Assembly (NCBI GenBank): GCA_965223155.1
Contig: CBDCVR010000014.1
Coordinates: 576,001-640,000, forward strand
Origin: Candidatus Multivoradales bacterium
GTDB taxonomy: Bacteria > Acidobacteriota > Thermoanaerobaculia > Multivoradales > JAHEKO01
Length of the DNA stretch: 64,000 bases
Direction of reading: 5' to 3'
Numbering within the stretch: position 1 is the first letter of the stretch; every line of letters begins with the position of its first letter. The notes beneath the pieces are model-generated. The model was given only the letters and a program-made list of their open reading frames with translations, made no database searches and had not been told where the DNA came from. A program made the position numbers and the translations under genes. Of this stretch, positions 1-54,425 are shown one piece after another.

Positions 1-1876
<1,876 letters not shown>

Positions 1877-52833: not shown

Positions 52834-53688
52834 TCAGGTTCCGACCCCCAGCTCTTCGACCCGAAACTCGTAGCGGGCCCCGCAGAACGAACACGTGGTC
52901 TCGATCTCGGTCCCGTCCTCGACCAGGTGGTCGCGATCTTCCTGGGGAAGCAGCGCGAGCGCATCCAGGAAGCGCTCGCGGCGGCACCGGCAACGGTACT
53001 CCAGCTCCTGGCGCTCCAGCAGCTCGACATCGAAGTCTCGAAATACGGAAGCCACCAGACCCGAGACGCCCTTCGCCTCCAGGATCCGGCTGACGCCTTC
53101 GAGCGCCGCCAGATTCGCCTCCAGCCCGGAAACGTCTTCGTCCGGCGTCCCGGGTAACGCTTCGACGACCAGACCGCCGGCCGCCCCGATACCCAGCGGC
53201 TTGGGCAAGACGCCCAGTAGCACCGCCGAGCGGATCTGCCGGCTCTGTTCCAGATAGTGCGCCAGATCGTCACCGATCTCGCTGGTGGTCAGGGCCACTC
53301 GGCTGGTGTACCGCTTGCCCTCCCTCTCGCGCGTCACGTGCAGGAAGCCCTTGCCGATCGCGTCCGCGATCCGGATCTTGTCCGCCTCCGGAGTTTCCAG
53401 CAACGGGTTGCCGATCGTCCCGCGCAGAGCGCCGCCGCCCTCGACCTCGGCCCGGACCGTACCCGCGGGCCCGTCACCCCGTGCCTCGAGAATAAGCCGC
53501 GCGGGCACCTTGAAGGAGAGACGGGACAAGAGCACCGCGCCGGTCAAGAGGCGGCCCAAGGCCACCGCCGCCACCGGCGAAAGATCCAGACGCCGGCGGG
53601 CTTCTTCGAGAACGAAGGCACTGTCCACGGCCACCCAGCGAAAGGCGCCCCGGGCTCCGAGCCCCGTCTGCAAGAAGGACCGTTCCAC
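52834..53688 (-). CDS. hslO: Hsp33 redox-regulated chaperone
   Basis: ALGRLLTGA, GDGPAG, EIGDDLAHYLEQS.QI.S, AAGGL..EALP; zinc switch CRC...CSFC. Confidence 0.95.
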   Translation of the reverse strand: MERSFLQTGLGARGAFRWVAVDSAFVLEEARRRLDLSPVAAVALGRLLTGAVLLSRLSFKVPARLILEARGDGPAGTVRAEVEGGGALRGTIGNPLLETPEADKIRIADAIGKGFLHVTREREGKRYTSRVALTTSEIGDDLAHYLEQSRQIRSAVLLGVLPKPLGIGAAGGLVVEALPGTPDEDVSGLEANLAALEGVSRILEAKGVSGLVASVFRDFDVELLERQELEYRCRCRRERFLDALALLPQEDRDHLVEDGTEIETTCSFCGARYEFRVEELGVGT

Positions 53689-53732: not shown

Positions 53733-54425
53733 ATGCGCTTCGAAACCCGGGTCAAACAGGCGATCTACGAGTACCTCGCGCGCGAGGCGCGGGCGCCCGA
53801 GCTGGCCGAGGTCGCCAGGCTCCTGGACACCGATCACGCCTCGGTCCGGGCCGCCTACGCCGAGCTCGCGGCCCAGCGCCTGCTGGTTCTCGAAGAGGAC
53901 GGCGTCTCGATTCGAATGGCGCCTCCCTTTTCGGGAGTCCCTACGCAGCACGTGGCCCACGTCGGTGGCCGCAGCTACTTCGCCAACTGCGCTTGGGACG
54001 TCTTCGGAATCGTCGCCGCCTTGGGCTCGGACGGACGGGTAGGGTCGCGCTGCGAGCAGTCGGGCGAGCCCCTGGAGCTCAATCTCACCGCCGCCGGCCC
54101 GGACGACCGCTTCGCCGACGGCTCGTGGCGCTTCCACTGCGCGCTCCCGGCCCGCCACTGGTGGGACGACATCGTCTACACGTGAAGCACCATGCTGTTC
54201 TTCCGGTCGGAAGACGACGTCGCAACCTGGTGCCGAGCGGCGGGAATCCCGGTGGGACCTACCACCAACCTGGCACAGCTCTGGGGACTTGCGCATGCCT
54301 GGTATGCGAACCGCCTGGAACCCGAGGCCGTCCGTCCAAGCGCCGAAGAGATCCCCGGGATCTTTCGGAATCTGGGCCTCACCGAAGACTTCTGGAACCC
54401 CCTGGCAAACAACCCGGTCCTCTGA
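53733..54425 (+). CDS. merB: MerB-like organomercurial (alkylmercury) lyase; probable selenoprotein with UGA at 54183-54185 (residue 151 of 230)
   Basis: ORFs 53718..54185 and 54192..54425 share a frame and are joined by TGA AGC ACC. N-terminal winged helix, MAPPFS, FANCAWD (Cys/Asp), SRC, then WWDDIVYT-U-STMLFFRSE, then LAHAWYANRL. The symbol denotes family only. Confidence 0.85.
54197..54215 (+). promoter_or_regulatory. Bacterial SECIS element GTTCTTCCGGTCGGAAGAC
   Basis: The hairpin begins 11 nt after the UGA, has a bulged U at +17 and an apical GGUC. This is the geometry of the E. coli fdhF SECIS with one extra base pair. Confidence 0.8.

Follow-up and report, generated by a model that had tools for sequence, protein, structure and literature searches.

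Among the closest known relatives of the gene reported here is SaoL, a MerB-like selenoprotein with a C-U motif in which selenocysteine (Sec, U) occupies the position of MerB Cys159. In the relevant passages of the preprint, SaoL belongs to a nine-gene locus of anaerobes known from about 45 loci, its hosts are spirochetes, deltaproteobacteria and Gram-positive anaerobes, and no activity is shown (Haft & Gwadz, bioRxiv 10.1101/2022.07.06.499078). SaoL is the only MerB-like selenoprotein entry in the pertinent parts of two reviews (PMC9312934, PMC13188914), and full-text literature searches for MerB-like selenoproteins found no other report; supplementary tables of selenoproteome papers might list the family described below. 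The gene considered here lies at 53733-54425 (+) of a 64,000-nucleotide stretch of DNA from a Candidatus Multivoradales bacterium, hereafter the window. It very probably encodes a 230-residue selenoprotein of the MerB superfamily, with a hairpin-directed Sec151 and, with less certainty, MerB-like organometal chemistry, and it stands alone rather than in a dedicated locus.

The gene forms one frame of 230 codons that begins with ATG at 53733, contains a single internal TGA at 54183-54185 (codon 151) and ends at a second TGA at 54423-54425, downstream of which there is no hairpin. A preliminary description of the window had joined two open reading frames (ORFs) of the same frame across the internal TGA into a 230-residue protein, and the read-through translation of 53733-54425 bears this out. 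The DNA quoted in that description was located at 54168-54215, and the protein string given there, WWDDIVYT-U-STMLFFRSED, is present when TGA is translated as U. In an ORF listing under table 11 the locus is instead split into a 155-residue ORF ending at the internal TGA and a 77-residue ORF in the same frame, and the window's own database protein entry (P0002) has 150 residues. The expectation that annotation would split or shorten the gene holds for the family at large. A protein search returned 1804 relatives, and among the best 120 of these, 115 terminate at query residue 148-150, mostly with the ending ...DDIVFT.

The codon at the aligned column was then compared among three sets of loci. 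A relative is encoded in 280 stretches of species-representative genomes, of which the best 80 were retained; these homologues start at the same Met, the tblastn matches cover residues ~1-227, and all 80 loci carry TGA at the column with the match running through it. Of 201 genomes sampled from the phylum to which the window belongs (the phylum sample), 20 gave a match, with 18 matched places containing '1 TGA' at identities down to 35 %. Sixteen of these more distant loci were taken (two unpublished genomes and two fragments were left out), of which 15 have TGA and one has TGC. The third set comprised 47 relatives of P0122, the closest Cys-form representative; 46 span the column, 45 with TGA and one with TGC. 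Overall, TGA is found in 140 of 142 homologous loci from many phyla, a count in which not all rows are distinct, since L101 is the same place as L043. The TGA is therefore not unique to this assembly. By record title, the carriers belong to Acidobacteriota, Verrucomicrobiota, Gemmatimonadota, Chloroflexota and others.

Database proteins display the same column from the other side. Of 150 listed representatives of 50 %-identity clusters (alignment A2), half (75) stop at residue 150 and 28 lack coverage of the column; the remainder show Cys in 39 cases and a different residue in eight, including two with W. The alternation between Cys and UGA that had been proposed as a check is thus present, with TGA and Cys at one column and conserved sequence on both sides. 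In 138 of the 140 Sec-form rows (the window included and L070 left out) the TGA column is preceded by Thr at position 150, with Asn in the other two, and the residues W166, W184, W190, Y191, L216, F220 and W221, all beyond the TGA, are nearly invariant. Several of these, together with the conserved G215, fall in an extension past the Pfam domain (residues 192-230, 54306-54422 (+)). The near invariance of columns in this C-terminal extension indicates that the frame beyond the TGA is translated.

A nonsense mutation in a former Cys codon, either in a pseudogene or through a sequencing or assembly error, would also produce gene calls that stop at the TGA and a database entry of 150 residues, as seen for the window gene. 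This explanation is highly unlikely given the position of the TGA at the same column in nearly all loci from many phyla, the conservation of the downstream frame and the RNA-level selection on the hairpin described below. The site is also the same in contigs of two sequencing runs (X1 and X3), which span the TGA with zero differing letters, both being from one sample that is possibly the assembly's own source; runs X2 and X4 lack coverage there.

Two further explanations would keep the downstream frame without selenocysteine. In the first, TGA is read as Trp or Gly in an alternative code. The few full-length database entries show W, G or R there, as gene calls made under an alternative code would, and P0003, P0004, P0145 and P0148 have W or G, which code-4 or code-25 calling would give. 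In the second, the locus is two genes, one of 150 residues and one corresponding to the 77-residue ORF from ATG 54192, for which Met154 could be the start codon. Both are extremely improbable. Of the 80 homologous genes, 31 terminate in TGA, 29 in TAG and 19 in TAA, with one gene cut by a contig end, and TGA is therefore an ordinary stop in the carriers, ending the window gene itself; the phyla of the carriers use the standard code and have tRNA-Sec and selA. Nineteen of the 140 rows have Ile or Val at position 154, so Met154 is not a conserved start, and neither the Pfam domain nor the fold is interrupted at the TGA.

The signal expected to direct recoding was sought in the RNA just past the TGA. 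A hairpin resembling a bacterial selenocysteine insertion sequence (bSECIS) lies at 54197-54215 (+), with a 5' arm at 54197-54204, a GGUC loop at 54205-54208 and a 3' arm at 54209-54215. Counting the U of UGA as +1, the window pairs are G15-C33, U16-A32, C18-G31, U19-A30, U20-A29, C21-G28 and C22-G27, and the GGUC occupies +23..26; RNAfold returns an equivalent apical stem of 6 bp. The pairs and the GGUC apex agree with the preliminary description, but its bulged U is not a shared feature of the family. The family consensus is a continuous 7-bp stem, and the bulge, which results from GAC in place of GAA at codon 161, is limited to the window gene and a small number of homologues.

Support for the hairpin is comparative. 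An alignment of 95 rows, 93 of them distinct (A4), contains 651 cells for the 7-bp stem around its 4-nt loop; 98.0 % of them are paired, compared with 44-70 % for slid controls. Four of the seven pairs have double changes (12 cells in all), namely U-A to C-G, U-A to G-C or C-G, C-G to G-C and C-G to A-U, and a fifth pair, C21-G28, is U-A in L119 and L121. None of 500 shuffles attains any of the five measures used. The GGUC loop is found in 80 of 81, 14 of 15 and 45 of 45 TGA loci, and the two exceptions keep GG and have the closing C-G swapped for A-U. Neither TGC locus (L115, L117) has an intact hairpin. The covariation analysis called for in the preliminary description therefore yields compensatory changes in four of seven pairs, together with frozen synonymous sites.

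The freezing of synonymous sites was determined by comparing codon choice within the hairpin to the rest of the same 80 genes. Codons 156 and 157 (Phe) are TTC in 79/79 and 80/80 cases, respectively, relative to 77 % elsewhere in the genes. The difference is larger for codon 158 (Arg, CGG in 79/80 versus 33 %), codon 159 (Ser, TCG in 79/79 versus 36 %) and codon 160 (Glu, GAA in 76/80 versus 28 %). Across phyla, the coding sequence of F-F-R-S-E hardly varies, even at third positions. Since R-S-E is variable in the Cys forms, its invariance in the Sec forms reflects a constraint on the RNA. On these comparative data the hairpin is under RNA-level selection, and its encoding by an F-F-R-S-E peptide that stays constant across phyla clearly illustrates how protein sequence can be restricted by a signal in the RNA.

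The history of the Sec column was estimated from an unrooted FastTree of 176 rows. A minimum of 6-8 changes between Sec and non-Sec states is needed, three of them forced by well-supported branches, and the window is placed in a well-supported set of 84 rows that are all Sec. The family is large and multi-phylum, drawn mostly from soil-type metagenome-assembled genomes (MAGs), with Sec as the commonest state and Cys forms recurring. One Cys form, L117:601-1272 from a Chloroflexia MAG, has TGC at the column and is 78 % identical to P0122. Its hairpin is a decayed remnant with four of seven pairs and the loop AGAC, and its 45 TGA relatives have an intact hairpin, which suggests a recent Sec-to-Cys replacement.

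The presence of selenocysteine machinery had been named as a further check, and the window's genome (98.7 % complete) possesses the complete set searched for: selA (455 bits), selB (325), selD (253) and tRNA-Sec (73) are all over their curated cut-offs, and ARAGORN predicts a tRNA-SeC with anticodon TCA. In 49 carrier genomes, reached via 50 loci, selA is over the cut-off in 44 and has some match in 46. In the phylum sample all 20 carriers have selA. The counts of selA and carriers include the unpublished genomes G049 (= G201), G073 and G098, and the pattern is unchanged without them.

Another in-frame TGA (CAAT-U-HAPTV) occurs in this genome within an FdhA/FdhF-like molybdopterin oxidoreductase gene at C13:453800-455821 (-), and the hairpin after it bears GGUC at +22..25. 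This gene probably encodes a second selenoprotein of the organism. A crude whole-genome scan for an in-frame TGA with a GGT-loop hairpin gave 63 candidates, which were discarded as noise from long random frames in GC-rich DNA; when eight of them were compared with Pfam, seven matched no family and the eighth showed domains solely past the TGA.

The protein family was assigned from profile and structure comparisons. The MerB domain of Pfam (PF03243) spans residues 66-191, across the TGA (53928-54305 (+)), with 86.7 bits against a cut-off of 27, coverage of profile positions 1-125 of 126 and an E value of 1.6e-24. A whole-genome search with PF03243 recovered the same gene with '1 TGA' inside it as the sole PF03243 gene of the genome. 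An AlphaFold2 model, based on a 110-row alignment (A3) of the window, 75 read-through homologues and 34 Cys-form representatives, has a predicted local distance difference test score (pLDDT) of 95.4 and a predicted template modelling score (pTM) of 0.92. In Foldseek searches with this model, all 11 PDB matches with E <= 0.001 were MerB or MerB2, the best being 5c17 (E 3.5e-11, template modelling scores 0.65/0.71, ~196 aligned columns including the N-terminus). The N-terminal residues ~1-60 (53733-53912 (+)) are modelled as a helical, winged-helix-like subdomain with helices at 3-18, 24-31 and 35-47. This part has a weak Foldseek similarity to winged helix-turn-helix (wHTH) domains of DtxR type (E ~0.1), and GntR and IclR helix-turn-helix (HTH) matches in Pfam are sub-threshold. 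Judged by the PF03243 domain and the modelled fold, the gene is a member of the MerB superfamily.

The HMMER alignment to PDB sequences (3f2g) places U151 on C159, C86 on C96 and D89 on D99, with the FF after the TGA column shared. The earlier assignment of the UGA to the Cys159 position before FF, and of the motif N-C-A-W-D to Cys96/Asp99, is thereby upheld. Cys86 is encoded at 53988-53990 and Asp89 at 53997-53999 (motif segment 53988-53999 (+)), and C86, W88 and D89 are invariant in all 140 Sec-form rows. The third catalytic position is Sec in place of the MerB-defining Cys, a chemically analogous residue. The C/D/U triad is invariant across the Sec forms.

These observations are consistent with the following mechanism. 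UGA codon 151 would be decoded as selenocysteine by SelB and tRNA-Sec, directed by the hairpin within the coding sequence, which starts 11-12 nt past the UGA and presents a 7-bp stem with GGUC at +23..26. Sec151 would replace the second catalytic cysteine, MerB Cys159, and Cys86/Asp89 would replace Cys96/Asp99. By analogy with MerB, Cys86 and Sec151 may coordinate the metal of an organometal compound while Asp89 protonates the leaving carbon, and the reaction would release a hydrocarbon and leave the metal ion bound by S, Se and carboxylate. With a selenolate, substrate present in trace amounts would be captured more tightly and more quickly. We infer from the conserved TGA, hairpin and machinery that Sec is actually inserted at codon 151. 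For the chemistry, the analogy tips the balance slightly towards a lyase performing organometal protonolysis. An organomercurial such as methylmercury would be the most likely substrate, a tentative assignment with other candidates remaining.

The genomic surroundings offer few additional clues to function. A gene for the redox-regulated chaperone Hsp33 (52834-53688 (-), Pfam E 8.9e-71) is divergently oriented and separated by 45 bp from the start of the MerB-like gene, a pairing not conserved at other loci, and the other neighbour is an alpha/beta hydrolase. The segment 51540-53273 (-) and the frames overlapping it comprise many long overlapping ORFs on both strands of a GC-rich stretch; one of these frames contains a GxGxxG motif for binding flavin adenine dinucleotide (FAD) that is typical of geranylgeranyl-reductase-like flavoproteins. 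Clustering of 2256 ORFs from 81 loci revealed no conserved partner, mer genes included, with only the gene itself and its shadow frames in common. The largest true neighbour cluster, of generic hydrolases, is present in 10 of the 81 loci, and a methyltransferase cluster is found in seven loci without a fixed position. In the window's genome the best MerA match has 384.8 bits against a cut-off of 454, with none over the cut-off, and there is no HgcA. With at most 26 candidates scored per genome, MerA is over the cut-off in just one of the 49 carrier genomes. The lack of a conserved mer context and this scarcity of MerA imply that the gene is not part of the mer resistance pathway. The family, as read from its sequences, has kept the MerB catalytic apparatus, including the proton-donor Asp, yet works outside that pathway.

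A number of results count against selenocysteine insertion or against an organomercurial substrate. Regarding insertion, the folding energy of the 71-nt region is no better than that of shuffled sequences (z = -0.33, with 70 of 200 shuffles equal), so thermodynamics alone proves nothing and the evidence for the hairpin is comparative. An Rfam scan of 54100-54330 gave no match to a SECIS family. Five of the 49 carrier genomes, all MAGs of unstated completeness, lack selA over the cut-off, and because selA is common in the phylum (163 of 201 genomes in the sample), its presence in all 20 carriers there is weak evidence alone. Regarding the substrate, there are no conserved mer neighbours in the 81 loci and almost no MerA in the carriers, and the MerB models NF033555 and NF009710 give only 34.7 bits against 200 and 35.2 against 193. 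In addition, the very stable Hg-Se bond could hinder product release.

The Rfam scan also returned a ZMP/ZTP riboswitch match at 54223-54311 (+), which at 17.7 bits against 39 (E 0.64) and inside the coding region is probably due to chance.

The main rival explanation accepts a genuine selenoprotein but assigns it a non-catalytic role, in which Cys86 and Sec151 form a ligand pair for metal or metalloid binding, trafficking or sensing, for example of Hg(II), Cu or Se species, and the winged-helix-like N-terminus perhaps binds DNA. Such a role would fit the absence of a mer operon, the near absence of MerA, the scores under the curated MerB cut-offs and the weak wHTH similarities. It would also fit the LuxR-type C-terminal segment on P0199 and P0254, and MerB variants that bind copper and other metals are reported in the portion of the preprint concerned (Haft & Gwadz, bioRxiv 10.1101/2022.07.06.499078). 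A mere thiolate/selenolate ligand site would need no such Asp, however, and the proton donor Asp89 is invariant in 140 of 140 rows along with C86 and W88. The same N-terminal subdomain is moreover present in canonical MerB, an enzyme, within the ~196 aligned columns noted above. We therefore consider the ligand-site role unlikely, though a serious competitor, and a MerB-like enzyme containing Sec remains the preferred interpretation.

Hundreds of species-level genomes carry the gene as a stub of 146-150 residues labelled 'organomercurial lyase' or 'hypothetical protein', and such stubs are uncountable in surveys demanding Cys159. Table 1 of a large mer-gene survey, the part of that source considered here, has no MerB for Acidobacteria. 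Soil microbes and pathways degrading methylmercury 'remain elusive' in the words of a study whose relevant text also reports 13C-labelled degrader MAGs, including Gemmatimonadota, without merA and merB (PMC12130583). As a phylum, Gemmatimonadota are also represented among the carriers in this analysis. It is conceivable, if rather doubtful, that the family represents an unrecognised selenium-dependent demethylase of methylmercury or other organometals, independent of the mer operon, in soil and sediment bacteria such as Acidobacteriota, Verrucomicrobiota, Gemmatimonadota and Chloroflexota. Such a family would have escaped surveys, as its gene calls end ahead of the third catalytic residue. Were this true, part of the demethylation ascribed to 'merB-lacking' organisms could be accounted for, and mercury cycling would be tied directly, through an enzyme, to the supply of selenium. 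The natural Cys/Asp/Sec triad beside Cys/Asp/Cys sister forms also represents a ready system for studying the role of selenium in metal-carbon cleavage.

In comparison with the known systems, the family shares with SaoL the PF03243 superfamily, Sec at the Cys159 column, Cys and Asp at the Cys96/Asp99 columns and truncation at the UGA in databases. The SaoL model NF040728 is the best NCBIfam match of the window gene, and these similarities might be taken to make the gene a SaoL-family member of the SAO system. That assignment has very little probability, as the match reaches only 36.7 bits against a cut-off of 140 and covers residues 6-118 only. The motif also differs, being a C-U dipeptide in SaoL and T-U followed by S or A in the window family. 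SaoL belongs to a nine-gene SAO locus, whereas the window gene stands alone, with Hsp33 and hydrolases as neighbours and no neighbour conserved in 81 loci; the SAO families were not searched for genome-wide. According to the preprint passages cited above, the carriers of SaoL are strict anaerobes, in contrast to the Acidobacteriota, Verrucomicrobiota, Gemmatimonadota, Chloroflexota and other phyla of the window family. The latter is also far larger in the collections searched, with 280 relatives in species genomes versus ~45 SaoL loci in that paper.

MerB and MerB2 (3f0p, 3f2g and 5c17) have the same fold (Foldseek E 3.5e-11 to 1e-6), Pfam domain and active-site positions as the window protein, but identity is only ~20 % and Sec replaces Cys159. 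The window family further has an extra conserved C-terminal segment of ~40 residues and, unlike MerB, is found outside the mer operon, with MerA not over the cut-off in 48 of the 49 carriers searched. The Cys-containing paralogues and orthologues of the same clade, annotated 'alkylmercury lyase family' or 'hypothetical protein', align over their full length, including the C-terminal extension, at 30-39 % identity. They differ in having the motif T-C-S, with TGC or TGT for TGA, no hairpin (L115 and L117) and a variable R-S-E. Cultured bacteria have such forms too: a full-length one with T-C-S at the column and 30 % identity, annotated as a hypothetical protein, is located on the Ralstonia solanacearum megaplasmid CP022482.1 (L175:2911-3588) and in 97 further Ralstonia records, and 23 Bacillus and four Streptomyces plasmid records also match. 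Two Cys-form representatives in A2, P0199 and P0254, have an extra C-terminal segment of ~90 residues resembling a LuxR-type HTH, and would be MerB-like modules fused to a DNA-binding domain.

For the recoding signal, the nearest known counterpart is the SECIS of Escherichia coli fdhF, which the preliminary description had invoked. Both are hairpins in the coding sequence just past the UGA with an apical GGUC, and U17 is indeed unpaired in E. coli K-12 fdhF, between G16-C30 and U18-A29. The position of the loop, by contrast, is one base off: GGUC is at +22..25 in fdhF, as in the genome's own FdhA-like gene, and at +23..26 in the window, one base further from the UGA. The stem sequence of fdhF is not related to that of the window family, whose stem is continuous over 7 bp. 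Taken together, the sequence comparisons indicate that the family is a second MerB-like selenoprotein family, one that stands alone, has a much wider distribution than SaoL and is systematically cut short in databases.

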